Shown: piece by piece, positions 15,486 through 25,843 of the stretch
Numbering within the stretch: the first letter of the stretch is position 1
Layout of the letters: each line of letters opens with the position of its first letter
Source: Bdellovibrionales bacterium
GTDB taxonomy: Bacteria > Myxococcota > XYA12-FULL-58-9 > SYDY01
Reading direction: 5' to 3'
Length of the DNA stretch: 64,000 nucleotides
Assembly: GCA_005801425.1 (NCBI GenBank)
Contig: SYDY01000027.1
Coordinates: forward strand, 8,444-72,443
Notes under the pieces: generated by a model
What the model was told of the DNA's origin: nothing
Database searches by the model: none
Seen by the model: only the letters and a program-made list of their open reading frames with translations
Program-made: the position numbers and the translations under genes

Positions 15486-15491
15486 TGCGTG

Positions 15492-16817
15492 ATGCTCGAT
15501 GCCAATGAGATCAGGCAATGGCTTGATTTCAACGTCGGATCTTTTCGGTTATCGCCTGTGTGGGTGCTCGTCTATTGGCCTATTCTTGTTGGCATCGCTG
15601 CTGCGTTTGCGTTGCGTAAAATCAAAAAAAATGAAGTGATTCGGCGTTACGGCATTCTTCTTGTGTTGCCATTGCTTATCAATATCGTGTTGCTGTTCAC
15701 GGGATGGTTTTTTCACGAGCGTATGGGACAACGCATCGATCATGCCTTGGTTCAGCATGCTGTGATTGCACCTGTGTCATGGATTTTTAATACTTTGCTT
15801 CAGATCCCTGTGATCAGAGATCAGCCTCTCCATATCGGTGTTGATTCCTTTTCTGGCTACATCGCGCCAAGTTGCGCAGGAACCCAAGGATTGTTTATTT
15901 TTACGATGCTTGCTGGCGCATGGTATTTTGTTCTTCGTCCGACGACTTTTCGGCATCGATTGATTTATTTGGTGCTTATGTGCGTTGGTCTTTGTTTGGG
16001 TTTTGTCGGCAATTGGCTGCGTCTTGTTGCGTTGCTTTATGTTGGGGCACGTGTTGATCGCGATCTGGCCCTCGCAGGATTTCATGACGCTGCAGGTGGG
16101 ATCATTGTGCTGTTGAATTTTGCATTGTTTGCGTGGGTCACGCATCGTGCATTGAAGGGTGATGATGGCAAAGCATGGTTTGCGGGCAATCCTGTGGTGC
16201 CCTATGTAATGCCTTGGATGGTGTGGATGGCATTGGGGATGCTTTCTGCGCTGGTCACGGTGCAATGGGATTGGTCGTATCCGTTGCGTGCTGTGATTGT
16301 ATTTATCATCCTAGGGGTGCTGGCTGCGCCTTTTCCTCAGACAATGATAAGGGCGGTTCGCGAACCGCCCCTACAGTCTGTTCTTGCAGGTCTATTCATC
16401 GCAGCTGTATGGATTATTTGGGGCCATTACGTGCTCGACCATGACTTTGCAGGTCGCATGCCAACTTCACTACGTTTTTATCACATGTGGATCGTCGGTC
16501 GCATTTTAGGAACCGTACTTCTGATTCCAGTGATTGAAGAACTCGCTTTTCGTGGATTTCTTGCGCGCGCTTTACAAAAGCCCATGTTTCAAGATCTCAC
16601 GCCATCGGATCTTCGTTGGCCGGCCATGCTTATTTCATCGGTGATTTTTGGTGTTTTTCACGACGCGCTTGCGGTCCCAGGCGTGGGTGCCGGATTTATA
16701 TTTGCGTTGCTTTATCGCAAGAGTGGGACGCTTGCATCCCCGATCATTGCGCATGCTGTTGCAAATCTTGGTGTCGCTTTGTACGCGCTAACCACAGGGC
16801 AGTGGCAGCATCTTTAA
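15492..16817 (+). CDS. Exosortase fused to a CPBP (CAAX protease/Abi) intramembrane metalloprotease domain (exosortase E/protease-like)
   Basis: N-terminal polytopic domain with the exosortase Cys motif (IAPSCAGTQG), GNWLRLV (Asn/Arg) and a GFHDAAGG His motif. C-terminal CPBP motifs EELAFRGF, FGVFH and HAVAN. The ORF's GTG at 15489 is an alternative start. Confidence 0.75.
   Translation: MLDANEIRQWLDFNVGSFRLSPVWVLVYWPILVGIAAAFALRKIKKNEVIRRYGILLVLPLLINIVLLFTGWFFHERMGQRIDHALVQHAVIAPVSWIFNTLLQIPVIRDQPLHIGVDSFSGYIAPSCAGTQGLFIFTMLAGAWYFVLRPTTFRHRLIYLVLMCVGLCLGFVGNWLRLVALLYVGARVDRDLALAGFHDAAGGIIVLLNFALFAWVTHRALKGDDGKAWFAGNPVVPYVMPWMVWMALGMLSALVTVQWDWSYPLRAVIVFIILGVLAAPFPQTMIRAVREPPLQSVLAGLFIAAVWIIWGHYVLDHDFAGRMPTSLRFYHMWIVGRILGTVLLIPVIEELAFRGFLARALQKPMFQDLTPSDLRWPAMLISSVIFGVFHDALAVPGVGAGFIFALLYRKSGTLASPIIAHAVANLGVALYALTTGQWQHL
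16351..16374. repeat. Single REP-like unit (GGGCGGTTCGCGAACCGCCCCTAC) inserted in-frame within the exosortase-CPBP coding sequence
   Basis: Exact match to the repeat family unit. It translates as (R)AVREPPLQ(S) at the junction between the exosortase and CPBP domains. Confidence 0.8.
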
Positions 16818-17506
16818 GCTTTATCTTTCCACAAATGCAAACTCACAAACAAAAACAGTTGATGCAGATGGGTGACGGCACTTTGATTCAGATCGTATGA
16901 ATCACGCCCTGACATATTGAAAATAAATGTTTGGTAGGGTGCACGGATGTAACTGTAGTCGAGGCCTACTTTGAGATAGGGCGGAAAATAATATTCGAGT
17001 GCAGTGCCAAGTCGCATACTCTTCCATGTTTTCCACGCCACTTCATTGTAACCCCCGGTGCCAGGATTGTAGCCCTGGTAGCTTAATCCCCAACCTCCGA
17101 AAAAAGAGGGCTCAAGAGGTTTAAGCCATTCGGGCAAACGTTGTTGCCAGTGCCATACGGGGTACACGCGCACGCCGGAATGCCAATGGGCCGACCACTC
17201 ACGATTTTTTTGATCGGTAATGTTGCGTCCGTGGCCCGTTAATGCGGTTTCAATCGCAGCGTAACCTTTGATATTGAAACCAAGATTAAGCAGCGTGCTT
17301 GCCCCTTTGCTTAAGTTGGTGCCAAGCAAATTGGCATCCCCTGGGGGTTGGTTGCTGGCCGAAAAATAACCGGTGTTGACGTTGGTGCCATTGACTGCGG
17401 ATCCGCCGAGGCCAATACCGATATAGCCACCTGGGCGTGCTTCCGCGTTGGACCACACAGTGCAAAGGAACAGCGGCAGAAGAAATCCAACAGAGGTGGT
17501 CTTCAT
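16814..17506 (-). CDS. Outer-membrane beta-barrel protein (OmpA-like/OmpW-like porin family), putative
   Basis: ORF 16814..17524. The internal start MKTTSVGFLLPLFLCTVWSNAEA is a typical Sec signal. Alternating aromatic/Gly-rich strands and a C-terminal aromatic (…YQTF-like) region. Confidence 0.55.
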   Translation of the reverse strand: MKTTSVGFLLPLFLCTVWSNAEARPGGYIGIGLGGSAVNGTNVNTGYFSASNQPPGDANLLGTNLSKGASTLLNLGFNIKGYAAIETALTGHGRNITDQKNREWSAHWHSGVRVYPVWHWQQRLPEWLKPLEPSFFGGWGLSYQGYNPGTGGYNEVAWKTWKSMRLGTALEYYFPPYLKVGLDYSYIRAPYQTFIFNMSGRDSYDLNQSAVTHLHQLFLFVSLHLWKDKA

Positions 17507-17582
17507 GCCTACTTCGTACCACATCTACGAAGAACTCTCAAACGCGGTTGACCCGAAGACAGCCTTCGGGCAACGTCGCTTC

Positions 17583-19100
17583 ATGCGAGGAATACTGAAT
17601 AAGTTGGGTCTCTACGGGACCCAATCGGGTGTGTGGTTTTCTGGTGAGCAAACCGCCAACGGAGGTCTGCTCGAAGTTACAACGCCTGTGGATGATAGCG
17701 TGATTGGCATGGTGCGTATGGCCACGCCGGAAGATTGCGATTGGATTATTGAAAAATCTCACGAAGCATTTTTGACGTGGCGCAATGTGCCCGCACCGAA
17801 GCGTGGCGAGGTGGTACGGCAGATCGGCAATGTTTTGCGTGAGAACAAAGCACTTCTTGGCCGACTTGTTTCGCTTGAGTGCGGAAAAATTTTAGCCGAA
17901 GGCGAAGGCGAAGTTCAGGAGATGATCGATATTGCCGACTTCGCGGTGGGTTTATCGCGTCAACTGTATGGCTTAACGATTGCATCCGAACGTTTTGAAC
18001 ATCGCATGCTTGAACAATGGCATCCGCTGGGTGTTGTGGGTGTTATTTCTGCATTTAATTTCCCTGTCGCGGTATGGGCGTGGAATGCGTTTCTTGCCCT
18101 CGTATGCGGCAATACTGTGGTTTGGAAGCCTTCAGAGAAAACACCGTTGTGTGCGATCGCATTGCAGAAGATGCTTGAGCCCGTGCTTGAAGAAAATGGG
18201 TGTTTAGGGGTGCTTGCAATCGGAGTGGGCGGGGTCGATGTGGGTCATGCGCTTGCATCACACGCGCGTGTGCCGTTGGTCTCCGCGACAGGTTCTACAC
18301 GCATGGGCAAGGCGGTGAATCAAACTGTGGCAGCACGATTGGGACGATCGCTGCTTGAGCTTGGCGGCAACAATGCGCTTGTGGTTGATAGTTCTGCCGA
18401 TTTGGATCTTGCGTTACGTGCTACTGTGTTTGGTGCAGTAGGAACCGCAGGACAACGCTGTACGACCACGCGTCGATTGCTGCTTCATCGTGATATTGCA
18501 CCGCAGTTTGTTAAAAAGTTAATAGAGTCCTATGGCCAGGTTCGCATTGGATCCCCTTTGAAAGCCGAAACTCTCATGGGGCCGTTAATCGATCACCCAA
18601 GTGTTGATGCGATGCAAAAAGCACTTCAAGAAGCACGCGAACAGGGTGCCGAAATATTGTACGGCGGTGATCGACTTTCCGGCGCATCCTATCCCGGAGG
18701 TGGTTATGTGCGTCCAGCGATTGTCAAAGCGCGTGCGGACATGCCCATTGTTCAAGAAGAGACCTTTGCACCTATTTTGTACGTGATCATTGTGGATAGC
18801 ATGGATGAAGCCATTGCCATCCAAAACGATGTGCCTCAGGGACTGTCCAGTGCGATATTTACCGATTCTGTGCGAAGTGCTGAACGGTTTCTTGCTGCGG
18901 ATGGTTCCGATTGCGGCATTGCCAACGTCAACATCGGCACCAGCGGTGCTGAAATTGGTGGTGCATTTGGTGGCGAAAAAGCCACAGGTGGTGGTCGTGA
19001 ATCCGGATCAGACGCTTGGAAAGTTTATATGCGAAGGCAAACACAAACCATCAATCGATCCAATGCATTGCCTCTCGCGCAAGGGATTGTTTTTGAATAA
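17583..19100 (+). CDS. Aldehyde dehydrogenase, ALDH7 (antiquitin/piperideine-6-carboxylate dehydrogenase-like) family
   Basis: ORF 17448..19100. Homology to ALDH7A1 begins near MRGILNKLGL. Motifs EGEGEVQEMIDIADFAVGLSR, catalytic Cys context GQRCTT and ELGGNNA. An alternative earlier start is 17505. Confidence 0.8.
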   Translation: MRGILNKLGLYGTQSGVWFSGEQTANGGLLEVTTPVDDSVIGMVRMATPEDCDWIIEKSHEAFLTWRNVPAPKRGEVVRQIGNVLRENKALLGRLVSLECGKILAEGEGEVQEMIDIADFAVGLSRQLYGLTIASERFEHRMLEQWHPLGVVGVISAFNFPVAVWAWNAFLALVCGNTVVWKPSEKTPLCAIALQKMLEPVLEENGCLGVLAIGVGGVDVGHALASHARVPLVSATGSTRMGKAVNQTVAARLGRSLLELGGNNALVVDSSADLDLALRATVFGAVGTAGQRCTTTRRLLLHRDIAPQFVKKLIESYGQVRIGSPLKAETLMGPLIDHPSVDAMQKALQEAREQGAEILYGGDRLSGASYPGGGYVRPAIVKARADMPIVQEETFAPILYVIIVDSMDEAIAIQNDVPQGLSSAIFTDSVRSAERFLAADGSDCGIANVNIGTSGAEIGGAFGGEKATGGGRESGSDAWKVYMRRQTQTINRSNALPLAQGIVFE

Positions 19101-19183
19101 TGGTAACCGCTCAGGAGATCTGGGCCATCGTATCTAAAATTGTTTCAGCGATCTCTGTTTAAGCATATCGTTAGCGTTGCCTT

Positions 19184-19663
19184 GCCATCCGTGTGCAGGT
19201 CCTCGCACGTCCACAAAAGCCACGTGACGCGCATGACTTTTGACTTGAATGTGTGTTTCTTGAGCGCGTCACAACGCTTTTGTGTCTTGTGCTCCGGTCC
19301 GTTCACACGGCAAGTGGCAAGGCAACGCTGTTTAGGGTTCGATGATTTTTCAGCCATCGCAGAGCCGGAGTTCCCGATTTTGCGGGGATGGCATCTTGAT
19401 ATGATCGGGCTGCATATCTACATATGTGACCAAGAGCGAGATACACGGGGTTCAATTTCAATCATAGAATGTTATCTGTTCTCTTTTGGTATACATGGTT
19501 AGTGTGACATGACAGCAAGCAGTGTCTCGCCACTTGCCGTGTGAACGGACCGGAGCACAAGACACAAAAGCGTTGTGACGCGTTTAAAAAATCCACTTCA
19601 CATCAAAATTTTATGCGCGTCACGTGGCTTTTGTGGACGTGCGAGGACCTGCACACGGATGGC
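19184..19663. repeat. Large imperfect inverted repeat (two perfect arm blocks of 51 and 54 bp separated by a symmetric 30-nt mismatch, with a 210-nt central loop)
   Basis: 19184-19234 is the reverse complement of 19613-19663, and 19265-19318 is the reverse complement of 19529-19582. The 30-nt segments 19235-19264 and 19583-19612 are not complementary. Intergenic between the ALDH gene and the GGDEF gene. Confidence 0.9.
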
Positions 19664-19704
19664 GAGATACTGCAAAAAAATAAGGATTTAAGCTTCGGAA
19701 TTTC

Positions 19705-20649
19705 TTAGCACTGCTCAGAAACCCGGTTTTTACCTGCCAATTTACTTTTTCGCAAAGCAATATCGGCATGCGCGAGAAGGTCGGTGATAGAATGTGTTTC
19801 AGCTGGAACTGGGCACACGCCCAAGCTGATGGTCTGTTGCATGGTGTGCTCTTTGATCTTGATGGGGCGTTCAGCAACGGCCTGTCGAACACGCTCAGCA
19901 AATCGAATGGCTTCATCAGAATGGTCACTGGGCAAAAGGATCAGAAATTCGTCGCCACCAATGCGTCCCACGTGGTCCATCGATCGTGCCGCGCCTCGAA
20001 TACGATGCGATATTTCCTTAAGAAACAGATCGCCGATATCATGGCCGAAGGTATCGTTGATCTTTTTGAAATTATCACAGTCCACAATAACGGCATGCAA
20101 GGGCTGACTGTATCGCGAAGCTCGCTCGAGATCGAGAAGCAAAATATGCTCAAGTCCTCGCCGGTTGAGTATCTCGGTGAGTGGGTCTAAAAATGCCAGG
20201 TGTTCGAGTTTTTCGTTGGCCTTTTCCAGCTGTGATTGAACGCGAAATCTTTCAATCGCATAGCGGATCGAACGGAGCAGTAGATCTCCAGGAATATTCC
20301 CTTTGATGATATAATCCTGAACGCCTTTATGCAAAGCATCCAGGGCGACGGATTCTTCATTGAGACTGGTAAGAATGACGACAGGGATCCGAATAAGTCC
20401 TGATGATTTCCACTCATCGAGCAACGAAAATGCATTGCCATCTGGAAGCTGAAAGTCCAAGAGCACACAATCGAAGGTGTGCCTTTGAAGTGCATCGAGC
20501 GCAGAATAGGTATCACTTACATGCTCAACGTCCACGAGCCGGGAATTTTCCGTTGCATGGAGTGCGCGCATAACGCTCATGCGATCGACTTCATCATCCT
20601 CGATATAGAGGAGTTTGATTCGTTCAGTGGGCCACGTGCAGCTTGTCAT
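19705..20649 (-). CDS. Response regulator receiver-GGDEF diguanylate cyclase
   Basis: REC domain (LLYIEDDEVD...LTSL) followed by GGDEF (RIGGDEFLIL). The ATG overlaps the stop of the upstream receiver gene (TGATG). Confidence 0.85.
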   Translation of the reverse strand: MTSCTWPTERIKLLYIEDDEVDRMSVMRALHATENSRLVDVEHVSDTYSALDALQRHTFDCVLLDFQLPDGNAFSLLDEWKSSGLIRIPVVILTSLNEESVALDALHKGVQDYIIKGNIPGDLLLRSIRYAIERFRVQSQLEKANEKLEHLAFLDPLTEILNRRGLEHILLLDLERASRYSQPLHAVIVDCDNFKKINDTFGHDIGDLFLKEISHRIRGAARSMDHVGRIGGDEFLILLPSDHSDEAIRFAERVRQAVAERPIKIKEHTMQQTISLGVCPVPAETHSITDLLAHADIALRKSKLAGKNRVSEQC

Positions 20650-21071
20650 CAGGGGATCTCCACAACCATCCAATAGGCATCAAGCATTTTGACGAGTCTT
20701 ATAAAGTCGAGGCCAACATTCGATTTGACGATGTAGCCGGCAATACATTTGCGGTACGCTGCGAGCTTATCTTCCTCAGCAGATGATGTTGTAAGTACAA
20801 AAATAGTAGCTCGGCTGTGTTCTGGATCATTGCGGATCTCAGTAAGAAATTCCACACCATTCATGCGTGGCATATTCAGATCAAGAAGAATAATGTAGGG
20901 TTTGGGAACCGCAGGGACGCCTTGGCCACGCAGCATTTCAAGTGCCTCGATGCCATCGTGGGCAACAAGAAGTGGATTTCCTATTTTGCTTTCACGGAAA
21001 GCGCGTTTGATCGCCATGATGTCAACATCATCGTCGTCAATGAGAAGAATATGAACCGGTTGTGTTGTCAT
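20649..21071 (-). CDS. Single-domain CheY-like response regulator receiver
   Basis: 140 aa with the phospho-acceptor context ILLIDDDDVD...LLDLNMP and the conserved Thr/Lys (VLTTS...K). No output domain. Confidence 0.85.
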   Translation of the reverse strand: MTTQPVHILLIDDDDVDIMAIKRAFRESKIGNPLLVAHDGIEALEMLRGQGVPAVPKPYIILLDLNMPRMNGVEFLTEIRNDPEHSRATIFVLTTSSAEEDKLAAYRKCIAGYIVKSNVGLDFIRLVKMLDAYWMVVEIP

Positions 21072-21080
21072 GATACACCT

Positions 21081-22523
21081 TTATTTTTTACCCGTTTTAA
21101 CCCTAGGCATGTTTTTGGGCCAAGTGAAGGAAAATGTTGAACCTCGATCCTTGGATTCAAGTGTGATGGTACCACCAGCCTGCTTTACGAGTTTTTTTAC
21201 GAGGGATAAACCAATGCCACTGCCTTCGACAGAATCGCGAGGCTTAAGTGTTTGAAACATTTGAAATATTTTATCGTGAAATTTGCTAGGGATCCCAGGG
21301 CCATCATCAGCGACGATGAAGTTGAAAAATGCTGTATTTTTTGCATCTTGGGCCGAGATTGTAATGCACCCATTGGTGCGATCATGGTGTTTGATGGCAT
21401 TTCCTATGAGGTTCATGAACACGCGTTTCAGTGACAATGGGGTCGTTGTTAAAATGGGCATGGGGTGCGTGATATTAATTGTAAAACCAGCGGGGATGTT
21501 TAATAGGTCGATGACCTCTTTGATGAGGGCTTTCGTATCGACCAACTCGACATTTTCTAAATCCTTTCCAGCCCGTGCATAGTCTAAAATATCCGTGAGA
21601 AGATGATCCATTCTTTTAACGCGCCCACGCAGGAGCTTCATGTGTTCTTGGCGTTCTCCAACAAGAACGTCTTTAAGATCCTCAATGAGCCATTGCGAAA
21701 GCGAGTCAATGGCACGCAGGGGTGCACGGAGATCATGGGAAGCGGCGTAGGCGAATTGCTGAAGTTCTGAGTTGACGTGTTCTAGCTCACCGTTGATTCG
21801 TGTCAGTGTGTTTTGGAACTCTTTTTGCTCTGTGATGTCGATGCATGAACCGATGAAACCTATCATGGTGCCATCTTCTTGAAAGCGTGGCACACCTTGG
21901 TCGTAAATCCATCGGTATTCGCCATCGGCGCGGCGAAGACGATACTCCATGACAAAAGATTGTCCTTCTACAAAGTGTTCCATATAGGTGTGCATACAAC
22001 GTTGGAAATCTTCAAAGTGCACACCTTCGACCCAACCGACGCCAAGTTCCTGCTCAATCGTTCTTCCTGTGAAGTGCAGCCATCCTTCATTGAAAAAATA
22101 GCATTCGGAATCGACTCCTGCCATCCAGATCATGACAGGCGCGTAATCGGCCATGACCCGAAAGCGTGTTTCGAGTTCTCGAATTTGTTGACCTGTGTGT
22201 GCCTGTTCGGAGATGTGGCGAACAAAGGTGACGGTACCGCGTTGACTGCGGACCATGCGTCCTTCGTACCAGCTTGAGGTATTGGGCGTGGGGAGTTCGT
22301 ATTCGAATGTCTCCACACCGCCTTCTAGAAGCACACGTGCGCTTCGATCCAGGATGAGCTTACTTACGTCTAGGGGAAATACTTCACGTATATGTTTACC
22401 ACGCGTCCATTTTGGCCATTTTTCCATGGGTTTGGGGGGATTGTGAAACGAAAGACATACACCTTTAGGATCAAGTTCGAAGGCCATGTCGGGAAGAAGA
22501 TCTAAAAGTGCAGGGTCGCTCAT
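21081..22523 (-). CDS. Cytoplasmic PAS-domain sensor histidine kinase
   Basis: 480 aa with no TM segments. PAS/PAC region, then HisKA (ASHDLRAPLRAI) and HATPase_c (GSGIGLSLVKKLV). The start ATG overlaps the stop of the monooxygenase beta-subunit gene (ATGA). Confidence 0.85.
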   Translation of the reverse strand: MSDPALLDLLPDMAFELDPKGVCLSFHNPPKPMEKWPKWTRGKHIREVFPLDVSKLILDRSARVLLEGGVETFEYELPTPNTSSWYEGRMVRSQRGTVTFVRHISEQAHTGQQIRELETRFRVMADYAPVMIWMAGVDSECYFFNEGWLHFTGRTIEQELGVGWVEGVHFEDFQRCMHTYMEHFVEGQSFVMEYRLRRADGEYRWIYDQGVPRFQEDGTMIGFIGSCIDITEQKEFQNTLTRINGELEHVNSELQQFAYAASHDLRAPLRAIDSLSQWLIEDLKDVLVGERQEHMKLLRGRVKRMDHLLTDILDYARAGKDLENVELVDTKALIKEVIDLLNIPAGFTINITHPMPILTTTPLSLKRVFMNLIGNAIKHHDRTNGCITISAQDAKNTAFFNFIVADDGPGIPSKFHDKIFQMFQTLKPRDSVEGSGIGLSLVKKLVKQAGGTITLESKDRGSTFSFTWPKNMPRVKTGKK

Positions 22524-23488
22524 GCTGAGATCCCTTCAAGACCGGCTTCACGCCAGAGTTTGTTTTGTAGTTGACGTACCGACGTACGTACGGATGCTCC
22601 TTTCGTTTCAAAAAGAGAAAGAAAAGGTGCAATCGCAGCGTCACAGATCGGCACCCATTTTTCGATCCAGCTCTGCACGAACATGGCATTTTTAGGCGAT
22701 TCGGTGATGCAAAATGTGACGAATGCTTGCATCCATTCGCGATGCCAGCGTGTATCCTCCTCAAGAGAAGCTAGGACTTTTGTGAGGATCTCGTCACCTG
22801 AGCGTTCAGCGAGACATGCCAATTGGGTGAGAAATAGGGCATCGAATGCGGGTTTTAGAACGAGGTTGAGTGCGGTGATTGTTTCACCCCACGCATATGT
22901 GACGAGAAGTTTTTCGATAGCCATCCGCATGGGTTGCCACATGGGATCTTCTTGCCAAAGGGCTTTTCCTGATTGAGCGAACTTGGGATGCGTGATCTGT
23001 ATTTGACGGAGACGATAGGCAAAGCGTTGGGTACGTCGCATTTCGTCGGCCGCTTGGAGTGCACAGGTGACAACCAAGCGACCACTTGGCGCGATGTGCC
23101 CCACGTATGCTGCAATCATTTGCAAGCCGTGGGTTGGATAAAGAATGGGACCCAAGATCCCACTCAGCGTTGCCAGCCACTGGGGTGTTAGGCGTTGATC
23201 GTATCCTGTCTCGTCGACGGATCGCAGAAGGCCATCGACGTAGATCTCCTTCTCATTCTGAAGCATCGTATATTTCGTATACGTGGTTTCACGCGGATCT
23301 CGGAATTGCTCCCAATCGGTTACTTGAAGCGGACAGTTTTTCTGTTGTGTGAGCAACCATTCGCCAGACGGGGTATGAACTTCAAAGCCTCGATTGGTGT
23401 AATAAAGAAGTTTTGATGTGCTGATATCATAATCCGACGGCTTTTTTTTCAAACCTTCAAGATGCCACCACGTACGTTGTGCTGTCAT
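22520..23488 (-). CDS. Soluble diiron monooxygenase hydroxylase beta subunit (TmoE/toluene-4-monooxygenase-like)
   Basis: ORF 22520..23506. The ATG at 23488 overlaps the effector gene stop (TAATG). Length ~322 aa and N-terminus RTWWHLEGLKKKPSDYDI resemble TmoE. Confidence 0.8.
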   Translation of the reverse strand: MTAQRTWWHLEGLKKKPSDYDISTSKLLYYTNRGFEVHTPSGEWLLTQQKNCPLQVTDWEQFRDPRETTYTKYTMLQNEKEIYVDGLLRSVDETGYDQRLTPQWLATLSGILGPILYPTHGLQMIAAYVGHIAPSGRLVVTCALQAADEMRRTQRFAYRLRQIQITHPKFAQSGKALWQEDPMWQPMRMAIEKLLVTYAWGETITALNLVLKPAFDALFLTQLACLAERSGDEILTKVLASLEEDTRWHREWMQAFVTFCITESPKNAMFVQSWIEKWVPICDAAIAPFLSLFETKGASVRTSVRQLQNKLWREAGLEGISA

Positions 23489-23784
23489 TATTTCCCAAAG
23501 GCCCAAATGGCCTCCTCCTCATTGATGGTCAACTTGCCTTTAAACGATGGCATGCAAAGTTCGAGATCACCTGGCAATAGGAATGGACGTCCGAGTGCTT
23601 GTTCGACAGCCGATCGTTTGAGTGTGCATTGCATAGGAACGGACACGCGGAGATAGGAACCTCGATCAAGGACAACGACACCCTTATTCAACTTTCGGAT
23701 TGCTGTGACGATGGCATTTGCAACATCACCGACTTCGAGAACCGGACCTACGCTATTGCTCTGCTCGCTAGGTATTGGCTTCAT
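23488..23784 (-). CDS. Monooxygenase effector/coupling protein (MmoB/DmpM/TmoD family)
   Basis: ORF 23488..23838. The internal start MKPIPSEQSNSVGPVLEVGD aligns with the TmoD N-terminus. ~98 aa. Confidence 0.7.
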   Translation of the reverse strand: MKPIPSEQSNSVGPVLEVGDVANAIVTAIRKLNKGVVVLDRGSYLRVSVPMQCTLKRSAVEQALGRPFLLPGDLELCMPSFKGKLTINEEEAIWAFGK

Positions 23785-24112
23785 GGTGTGTTCCGGGTGG
23801 GTTTGGTGGAATATCAACCAGTATATTGCCATCGACAATTTTTACGTCGAAAGGACGCAAGCAAACCGACCGAGGATTGATCCCTTGGCCTGTGCGCGCA
23901 TCGTAGGAGTAGAAATGTGCACAACATGTGAGTACATCATCTTGTAGCAAGCCTTCGCTGATGGCCACTCCCAAATGGGCACAACGATCTTCGTAGGCAT
24001 AGATGGTTTCATCGATGCGGACGAGTAGGACTTTCGTACCTTCAATTTCACATCCGATCATATCACCTTGCCAGAGTTCATCGACGGGCATTATTTTTTG
24101 GAATGCCATCAA
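23768..24112 (-). CDS. Rieske [2Fe-2S] ferredoxin component (TmoC-like)
   Basis: 114 aa with CxH...(17)...CxxH ligands (RCAHLG ... TCCAHF). Confidence 0.75.
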   Translation of the reverse strand: MMAFQKIMPVDELWQGDMIGCEIEGTKVLLVRIDETIYAYEDRCAHLGVAISEGLLQDDVLTCCAHFYSYDARTGQGINPRSVCLRPFDVKIVDGNILVDIPPNPPGTHHEANT

Positions 24113-24351
24113 ATATTCTCCGCAATCACATCGATTCGATCGAGTGCAGAAAGGCCGACTTCAGCGATGGTGAGTTCAGGATCTAGAAGTTCTCCATGAC
24201 GGTAGACTTGTGCATATGTTTTGGGTTTGACGCGGACCGAGGCGGCTTCTTGTAGACTTGCTGCGAGATCTTTGATCCTGTCTGTGTCATGCACGAGAAC
24301 GACCAGCCCGATGGTATCGCCTTTTAAGAATCCAAAGAGAGGTACAAGCAT
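24109..24351 (-). CDS. Monooxygenase gamma subunit (TmoB-like)
   Basis: ORF 24109..24474. The Met at 24351 (MLVPLFGFLKGDT...) starts 5 nt after the alpha-subunit stop. ~80 aa, the size of TmoB. Confidence 0.65.
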   Translation of the reverse strand: MLVPLFGFLKGDTIGLVVLVHDTDRIKDLAASLQEAASVRVKPKTYAQVYRHGELLDPELTIAEVGLSALDRIDVIAENI

Positions 24352-24355
24352 GGCA

Positions 24356-25843
24356 TTAACCTTTCGATAATTGCATCCAAGGGTATCTGCCTCCCGCAAC
24401 ATCTTTGCCCCATATGCTCGGCGTGAGATCGAAGTATCGTAGGAGTTCAAACAGATTGCCTGGCGCTTCTCCACTGAGGATCCGCATCACAACATCTTTG
24501 TGATGCTCATAACGTTCTGGCTCGCTTTCGAAGATCCAACGGCATGGTTTCGAACAGAAGACATACTTGCGCGCGCCGCGCGTGATCACCTCCGCGGAGT
24601 TACGTTCCGGCGAACCACCACACAAGACGAGCTGACAGAGGTTGCAAAAAGTAACGGGTGTTGCACCATGGGTGTACCACTCGACGCCAGGGCCAGATTT
24701 ACGCCAGCGGTTTGTGATTTGCTCCCAGATGGGATCGAAAAGCGGCCAGGTCTTTGCATATTTTTCCTGAAGCCAGGTTCTTTCTTCTGGACCTGGCAGT
24801 GCGAAGTTGAACCAGGTTGTTGCACGGTATGTGTAAGCACTTGCGTAAACCATGTGATGGTAGGTGTCGATGGCATCCAGGAACTGTTGCCAGTACCATG
24901 GCAATGCGAGCCCCATTTCTTCAAGTGAGCGCTTGAACTGATCGAGCACCCATTCTTGCATGAATTCTTTAAATGATTGTGTCCGATGTTTGAGCGGCGT
25001 CAGGTAATCCATGCTGAAGCCGGTGATGACGGCAAAGAAAAGCCAGTTTCGCCAGAACCATTTGTCGACCAGATATTGGGCACGCTTGGGATCGTGCGCG
25101 ATTATTTTTTGGAGGACGGGATGCCCTATTTGGGCGTGACGTGCTTCATCGGTTTGGATGCTTTTGACCATTTTCTCGAACATGCGATCGCCGGCAGCAT
25201 GTGCCATGGTCGATAGACCAATGAACTGGAGATTGGTGAAGCCGGTTTCAAAAACAAAATTGGTGCCGACAGCGAACTCCATGGGATCTGATGTGATAAG
25301 GAGTTCATCGACGAGATGACGGCCTGCGATGGCAATCCAGTTGTTGGTGTGAAAAAATTTGTGGGTCCAGTCAAATTGAGGATCCCATCGGACCAATTCG
25401 TGCATGATGAGCAGTGGGATCTGGGCGTGACGAAGTTCATCCAATGCGCCGAGGAGTGCTGTTGTGCGCCATGCGCTATCGCGCCCAAAGCGGGCCGCGC
25501 GAAGATTCCCCACAACTGCTGCAAATTCAGCCAATGCAAGTGTTGCCGCGTGGAGCTTTAATCCGTTGATCCAAGAAGGGTCATGTTTCTGAAAGTCCTC
25601 CACCTTGCCGACGGCATCACGCACCGCATGGACGGAAGCTTCTTTGATGGACTGATTTTTTACGTATTCTGTGTAGGATGTACGATAGGGTTCATCCCAA
25701 TCCTTCCATGTTTCGGCTGTGAGCCATGGGGAACCGCTGATTTCTTCGGGAAAGACCTCTCGTTCCTCAACATAAGAGAAGTCCCAATCGAGCTTTCGTG
25801 CTAGATCGAGCCAGTCGTCGCGCTTTAGCATGGCGCTCCCCAT
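24356..25843 (-). CDS. Soluble diiron monooxygenase hydroxylase alpha subunit (toluene-4-monooxygenase TmoA-like, group 2 SDIMO)
   Basis: 495 aa with diiron ligand motifs E...DELRH and E...DEARH (LGALDELRHAQ; SIQTDEARHAQ). Global similarity to the TmoA/TouA layout. Confidence 0.85.
   Translation of the reverse strand: MGSAMLKRDDWLDLARKLDWDFSYVEEREVFPEEISGSPWLTAETWKDWDEPYRTSYTEYVKNQSIKEASVHAVRDAVGKVEDFQKHDPSWINGLKLHAATLALAEFAAVVGNLRAARFGRDSAWRTTALLGALDELRHAQIPLLIMHELVRWDPQFDWTHKFFHTNNWIAIAGRHLVDELLITSDPMEFAVGTNFVFETGFTNLQFIGLSTMAHAAGDRMFEKMVKSIQTDEARHAQIGHPVLQKIIAHDPKRAQYLVDKWFWRNWLFFAVITGFSMDYLTPLKHRTQSFKEFMQEWVLDQFKRSLEEMGLALPWYWQQFLDAIDTYHHMVYASAYTYRATTWFNFALPGPEERTWLQEKYAKTWPLFDPIWEQITNRWRKSGPGVEWYTHGATPVTFCNLCQLVLCGGSPERNSAEVITRGARKYVFCSKPCRWIFESEPERYEHHKDVVMRILSGEAPGNLFELLRYFDLTPSIWGKDVAGGRYPWMQLSKG

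Follow-up and report, generated by a model that had tools for sequence, protein, structure and literature searches.

The systems closest to the repeat examined here are the bacterial MITEs, the REP/BIME/REPIN sequences, the ISPepr1 insertion sequences and, in outline, the invertons. MITEs such as Correia/NEMIS in Neisseria, ERIC in enterobacteria and RUP/BOX/SPRITE in pneumococcus are small (<600 bp), non-coding, multi-copy and mostly intergenic, and the features of Correia, ERIC and other bacterial MITEs used for comparison are those given in a review (PMC10969869). In REPINs, inverted conserved arms enclose a less conserved spacer, giving a long hairpin with compensatory changes (PMC3116915). 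The ISPepr1 subgroup of the IS4 family has 5'-CT ends, is flanked by 7-8-bp direct repeats and uses AT-rich targets (PMC2266710). Invertons, of the fimS type or the invertible promoters of Bacteroides, carry inverted repeats around a short non-coding segment.

Here we compared these systems with a region of a 64-kb stretch of DNA (hereafter the window) and found that its interval from about 19120 to 19680 is very probably one copy of a non-autonomous, non-coding, MITE-like transposable repeat, mosaic in composition and built of twin hairpins. The copies share with the MITEs named above their small size, non-coding content, copy number and mostly intergenic location; one subfamily has terminal inverted repeats (TIRs) and target-site duplications (TSDs), transcripts would fold into long stable hairpins, and mosaic or recombinant forms as well as deletion derivatives occur. 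Unlike those MITEs, the element holds two separate hairpins of ~155 nt (with imperfect stems of ~60 bp) inside short TIRs, and not one end-to-end fold-back, its TSD is 7 bp, and searches of Rfam, plasmids, viral contigs and 185k species genomes found no family similar to it in sequence. The family thus appears to be undescribed while the kind of element is well known, and its body plan, with two long covarying hairpins inside short TIRs, is unusual but not unprecedented.

The original prediction for this region was one long stem with exact arms of 51 and 54 bp and a symmetric internal bubble. Direct string comparison bore out the arms, with 19184-19234 being the exact reverse complement of 19613-19663 (51/51) and 19265-19318 that of 19529-19582 (54/54), and exact inverted matches of these two lengths cannot have arisen by chance in 64 kb. 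The equal-length 30-nt segments between the arms (19235-19264 and 19583-19612) are non-complementary, as had been described, matching as reverse complements at only 15/30 positions, and the sequence CACGTGACGCG, said to be shared, is present in both arms of the window element. A repeat search of the window extended the arms to 19181-19329 and 19518-19666, that is, 149 nt with 87% complementarity and 188 nt between them. The single bubbled stem, however, did not survive, because both the repeat search and folding revealed each arm to be an imperfect palindrome by itself. The structure therefore consists of two ~155-nt hairpins, and the supposed symmetric bubble corresponds to their two apical loops of 30 nt.

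The first hairpin, H1, spans 19173-19329 on the plus strand (outer arm a at 19173-19234, apical loop at 19235-19264 and inner arm b at 19265-19329), and the second, H2, spans 19519-19673 with its a-loop-b order on the minus strand (inner arm at 19519-19582, loop at 19583-19612 and outer arm at 19613-19673). The base of the H1 stem is formed by 19173-19187, the perfect 15-nt complement of 19315-19329, and that of H2 by GCAGTATCTCGCC/GGCGAGACACTGC; the two bases are unlike each other (AGCGTTGCCTTGCC… in H1 and GCAGTATCTCGCC… in H2), and each is complementary within its own hairpin. Predicted folding energies were -84.7 kcal/mol (z -7.4) for H1 on the plus strand and -81.4 on the minus strand, and -78.2 kcal/mol (z -8.1) for H2 on the minus strand and -79.4 on the plus strand, so that the window hairpins overall range in dG from -78 to -85 kcal/mol and in z from -7.4 to -8.2. 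With nhmmer, H1 and H2 were recovered at E = 3.5e-43 and E = 7.3e-44, respectively. The variable, non-coding centre between them (19330-19518) is not conserved across the family; it aligns partially to loci L005 and L017, and only its H2-proximal ~44 nt match L005.

Outside H1, the motif CTGGGCCATCGTATCTA (19120-19136, plus strand), the subfamily-A version of CAGGGCYATCGCATCTA, probably marks the outermost end on that side, and is followed by a subterminal region (AAAATTGTTTCAGCGATCTCTGTTTAAGCATATCGTT, 19137-19172, plus strand) that shows partial conservation with the corresponding flanks of L005, L016, L017 and L023. Outside H2, an A-run (…CTGCAAAAAAA, 19674-19680, plus strand) closes the conserved sequence, and similarity to L005, L017, L008 and L009 is lost after CTGCARAAA. 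A consensus scan of the region returned promoter-like and terminator-like sites at counts no higher than in shuffled sequence, and no U-tract follows the window hairpins. The sole sigma-70-like match of the region, TCCACA-18-TAAAAT at 19608-19637 on the minus strand, falls in the outer arm and loop of H2; shuffled sequences yield such matches at least as often, and this one is not conserved in the loops of other copies.

The element occupies a 604-bp gap between two convergent genes, one for an aldehyde dehydrogenase (ALDH; 17505-19100, plus strand; Pfam Aldedh E = 6e-132) and one for a response-regulator/GGDEF diguanylate cyclase (RR-GGDEF; 19705-20673, minus strand; Pfam Response_reg and GGDEF). 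Both genes are also called in L001, a 253-kb ENA metagenome contig that is 100% identical to the window over 13.6 kb including the element and may be its source assembly. The two 3' ends face the element, with the ALDH stop codon 72 nt before H1 and the RR-GGDEF stop codon 31 nt after H2. The element therefore does not lie just upstream of a promoter region, as had been proposed, since each of its two convergent neighbours turns its 3' end towards it.

The RR-GGDEF gene belongs to a minus-strand cluster (19705-25843) that encodes a multicomponent phenol/toluene-type monooxygenase (Phenol_Hydrox, MmoB/DmpM, Rieske and TmoB) and, after the monooxygenase genes, a PAS histidine kinase, a stand-alone receiver and the receiver-GGDEF protein, and an exosortase/CAAX-protease fusion is encoded upstream of ALDH at 15489-16817. 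In a protein-based scan of 185,579 species genomes, the best match of the ALDH had 66% identity and the matches were of mixed phyla, which indicates that the lineage is poorly represented; the 90%-identity protein cluster of the ALDH has this one member only. The same ALDH protein scan, used to look for syntenic relatives or an empty site, found no synteny. Within the 64-kb window, neither blastn nor a profile HMM found a second copy of the element.

Further copies were sought with a pattern derived from the top of the hairpin, AAGCNNNGTGACGCG-N18-48-CGCGTCACNNNGCTT, and 22 loci matched it, all of them in two metagenomes (SXGS and SXGR). After removal of the duplicate pairs (L003 = L022 and L009 = L012) and pairing of halves at contig ends, these represent about 18 distinct sites with unrelated flanking genes, and the idea of an inverted duplication specific to the window locus is refuted by these other insertion sites. 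The tetranucleotide signatures of the loci correlate with that of the window at r 0.90-0.97, compared with at most 0.725 for 80 unrelated control loci, and they therefore come from the same organism as the window or from closely related, uncultured ones. The hairpin-top pattern had 0 matches in the 185,579 species genomes (one genome per species) and 0 matches in viral contigs, and blastn with A-type and B-type elements had no match in plasmids. No match reached the gathering score of an Rfam 15 family in a permissive search of the window region or in three other copies. Below that threshold, MIR848 in L023 was the only match inside an element, and an sX2 match at window 19755-19830 lies outside it.

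Seven contigs end inside the element, as expected of a multi-copy repeat. An all-against-all comparison of open reading frames (ORFs) found no conserved ORF, the only matches between copies running through the repeat DNA itself, and likewise no recurrent protein gene near the elements. The window copy measures about 560 bp and complete copies of subfamily B 467-557 bp.

The body of the element consists of four related units of ~55 nt in alternating orientation, in the order outer arm a, loop, inner arm b, variable centre, b, loop and a, and in complete copies the two hairpins are always "+ then -" relative to the left arm of the window, never the reverse. Centres measure about 60 to 190 nt, and their conservation does not reach beyond sub-groups. 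Subfamily A comprises the window copy, L005, L017, L008 and L009, with arms 88-97% identical to those of the window, and subfamily B comprises L002, L003, L004, L011 and others. In L008 and L009 the two hairpins have differing arm types, which shows that the conserved feature is each hairpin and not the long repeat between the hairpins. Another five loci (L015, L019, L021, L016 and L013) are single perfect palindromes whose tops mix a-arm and b-arm sequence, as expected from deletion between direct-oriented units.

Several loci combine parts of different origin. One side of L013:2433-2715 has a subfamily-A end and the other a subfamily-B TIR, L009:6635-7035 joins an A-type H2 to a B-type H1, and an A-type outer motif stands directly outside a B-type TIR at L002:2818-2840; the subfamilies appear to have recombined, or nested in one another, frequently. 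Contig-end hairpins at L007:1-158 and L018:4867-5026 join the outer arm of one type to the inner arm of the other, which could equally be the product expected of an inversion of the centre or an assembly chimera. Two other contig-end loci, L010:12880-13083 and L014:14011-14192, are perfect palindromes that continue through ~70-100 nt of flank (dG -171 and -139 kcal/mol) and are, for this reason and because of their position at contig ends, probably assembler fold-backs. A 376-aa ORF at L009:5578-6708 enters the outer arm of a hairpin by ~70 nt and, if real, takes its C-terminus and stop codon from the repeat.

Evidence of transposition comes from the ends of subfamily B, which are 14-bp TIRs (CTGAYSTTACGCGG … CCGCGTAASRTCAG) located outside the hairpins and flanked by perfect 7-bp direct repeats, namely GTTTTAA in L003, TTCCTAA in L004 and TATGTAA in L019. 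Two split pairs, taken to be halves of single elements, likewise carry TAAATAA (L006/L020) and TTAAGAT (L007/L018). These 14-bp TIRs together with 7-bp AT-rich TSDs show that subfamily B copies were inserted by transposition, and hence that the family transposes. The TSD of L019 (5228-5234 and 5487-5493) includes the TAA stop codon of the upstream gene, and several other copies begin within ~12 nt of a stop codon, so there may be a target preference for stop-codon-proximal AT-rich sequence. Of the four options first put forward (inverted duplication, MITE or transposon remnant with long TIRs, cruciform regulatory site and long structured ncRNA), the MITE or transposon is thus the one upheld as to the kind of element, by the dispersed family and by the TIRs and TSDs of subfamily B, but not as to the termini, since the long arms do not form the ends and the 14-bp repeats lie outside the hairpins.

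Subfamily A has less clearly delimited ends. Its outer motif CAGGGCYATCGCATCTA adjoins elements in 7/8 matches in about 246 kb searched; L008 carries the motif at both ends in inverted orientation, and L005, L013, L002 and the window have it at one end. The subfamily-B TIR is absent from the window copy, no right end matching CTGGGCCATCGTATCTA was found for it, and local alignments of its right flank to other copies were not significant. Across the subfamily-A copies, the window included, no clean pair of TIR and TSD was recognised, only offset and imperfect direct-repeat candidates. The candidate TSD of the window copy, CTCAGGA (19110-19116) and CTCAGAA (19714-19720), is doubtful, being offset from the motif and placing the GGDEF stop codon inside the element. 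The window copy is an old member of subfamily A and, with its termini degenerate or not delimited, may no longer be mobile.

No autonomous insertion sequence or transposase with matching ends was found in ~250 kb of the lineage by TIR scan, ORF comparison and megablast. The subfamily-B ends resemble those of the ISPepr1 subgroup in beginning with CTGA… and in their 7-bp AT-rich TSDs, and 5/8 conserved positions of the ISPepr1 end consensus YT-AA-YTT---A (PMC2266710) match CTGAYSTTACGCGG; with only these five positions shared and no gene found for a DDE transposase, which in this group would carry the YREK motif, ISPepr1 is a lead and not an assignment.

The elements are distributed unevenly with respect to gene ends. 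Among the 15 with both flanks known, 10 have convergent genes on either side, where 25% would be expected (binomial P about 8e-4), and 27/34 flanking gene ends are 3' ends, usually with the element 0-70 nt from the stop codon. REP/BIME sequences and many MITEs have a similar bias to gene 3' ends. Selection against insertions on the promoter side, a target preference or a function could each produce the bias to convergent sites.

To examine constraint on the hairpins, 21 intact hairpins were aligned for covariation. RNAalifold predicted 33 pairs, and 3 of them change on both sides yet stay paired (columns 13/156, 37/128, with CG, GC and AU, and 39/126). The stem bases fall into the classes …GCCTTGCC, …GTCTCGCC and …GCCTCGCC, each matched by its own 3' partner, so the hairpin stems are maintained by compensatory substitutions. 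Identity among A-type hairpins was 96-98% in the arms, 61% in the loops and 62-69% in the stem bases, where the loop value mixes the H1 and H2 loop types (same-type loops of close copies are ~90% identical by eye) and the conservation of the arms is partly an effect of ascertainment, since the search pattern itself dictated 24 positions in the arms. Folding energy did not differ between sense and antisense, and the hairpins could accordingly act as RNA, as single-stranded DNA or on both strands; with no U-tract and no strand bias in energy, a terminator or RNA role lacks direct support.

These comparisons show a family that is dispersed at ~18 distinct sites, moves by transposition and gathers between convergent genes beside stop codons, and whose collapsed copies with a single palindrome are deletions by recombination between direct-oriented units. 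A DDE transposase acting in trans, perhaps one of the ISPepr1 type within the IS4 family, would supply the mobilisation. With the units in this order, a transcript entering from either side would read the same a-loop-b hairpin. It is therefore most likely that the hairpins serve both convergent genes as orientation-independent 3'-UTR structures, or are tolerated as such, as the analogy with REP, ERIC and Correia elements suggests. In this role they could serve as a barrier to read-through, as a barrier to exonucleases or as an RNase III substrate.

Cut-and-paste transposition by a DDE enzyme does not by itself explain the compensatory upkeep of hairpins that lie inside the ends. Because the stems covary and the arms are far better conserved than the rest of the element, some weight stays with the views that a module is selected or that the hairpins are a substrate. 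As an addition to transposition, we consider it rather unlikely, though worth keeping in view, that the twin hairpins are a selected orientation-independent module for the transcript or the replication fork (a bidirectional 3'-end or insulator, spread by transposition and kept where convergent genes end) or are the substrate of an as yet undescribed hairpin-recognising mobilisation system. A stronger form, in which the hairpins are primarily an RNA- or ssDNA-level module (bidirectional 3'-end, insulator or stability) selected for convergent genes and transposition is merely the vehicle, is tentatively the most plausible of the alternatives to a transposable repeat. It would account for the compensatory changes that keep the stems across subfamilies, for arms much better conserved than loops, centre and outer ends, for the strong bias to convergent 3' ends 0-70 nt from stop codons and for the same a-loop-b sense met by transcripts from both sides, and REP, ERIC and Correia elements offer precedents. 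Against it, the hairpins lack a U-tract or any other sign of a terminator and do not differ in folding energy between sense and antisense, the convergent bias is also expected from purifying selection against promoter-side insertions, and the conservation of the arms is in part the ascertainment described above.

A related question is whether the element might be of the REPIN/BIME type and be moved as a single-stranded hairpin by a RAYT (Y1 HUH) transposase and not by a DDE enzyme. Its palindromic units alternate in orientation as in BIMEs, its extragenic, 3'-proximal location is also that of REP/BIME/REPIN sequences, it has the inverted conserved arms, less conserved variable spacer, long hairpin and compensatory changes of REPINs (PMC3116915), and conservation of the hairpin is what an enzyme recognising ssDNA hairpins would impose. 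However, units of ~55 nt and hairpins of ~155 nt are several times larger than REPs (~20-35 nt), and neither a RAYT-like gene nor any other recurrent gene lies near the elements. Y1 enzymes, as in IS200/IS605, transpose without TIRs or TSDs, so the classical TIRs and perfect 7-bp TSDs of subfamily B place the family outside the REPIN class, and we regard mobilisation by a RAYT as improbable.

Still less probable is an invertible DNA switch, in which the 149-nt repeats would invert the 188-nt centre, or a cruciform or other regulatory palindrome specific to this locus. Long near-perfect inverted repeats around a short centre are what a switch would need, and the L007 and L018 hairpins, the only hint of the other orientation, join outer and inner arms of unlike types as an inversion of the centre would, but those hairpins stand at contig ends and may be assembly chimeras. 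Compared with invertons, the element has repeats that are 5-10 times longer, each of them a hairpin in itself, and it lacks an adjacent invertase and a downstream gene, and no recombinase was found among the flanking genes; at a site between two gene 3' ends, a promoter flip would have nothing to control. The centre is moreover not conserved and has promoter-like content no higher than shuffles, and the window element is one of many dispersed copies, so that the proposed locus-specific cruciform regulatory site is contradicted by both its context and the family. An assembly artefact, that is, a collapsed or fold-back hairpin, had been named as what would undo the original prediction and is hardly credible. 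The palindromes of L010 and L014 at contig ends, flanks included, do resemble assembler fold-backs, but the flanks of the window copy are unique and unlike each other, its loops differ and its centre is unique, it is identical in the 253-kb ENA contig, and the same architecture recurs at many interior positions of long contigs in other metagenome assemblies, which excludes an artefact of one assembly. Three further candidates were set aside, an integron attC site (orientation inverted and not tandem, and no integrase), a template/variable pair of a DGR (loop differences not adenine-specific) and a retron or IS605 omega-RNA (no reverse transcriptase or TnpB, and no Rfam match).

A transposable repeat with twin hairpins thus remains the reading we prefer. 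It means that the conspicuous feature of this region is a member of a repeat family and not a locus-specific regulator, which guards against reading it as a control site for the monooxygenase, two-component and GGDEF genes. The family is apparently confined to a lineage without a close representative among 185,579 species genomes, and because the element breaks metagenome contigs, it matters when genomes of that lineage are assembled and binned. Should the hairpins prove to be functional 3'-end modules, the family would offer a clear case in nature of a symmetric RNA structure that was spread by a transposon and serves convergent genes.
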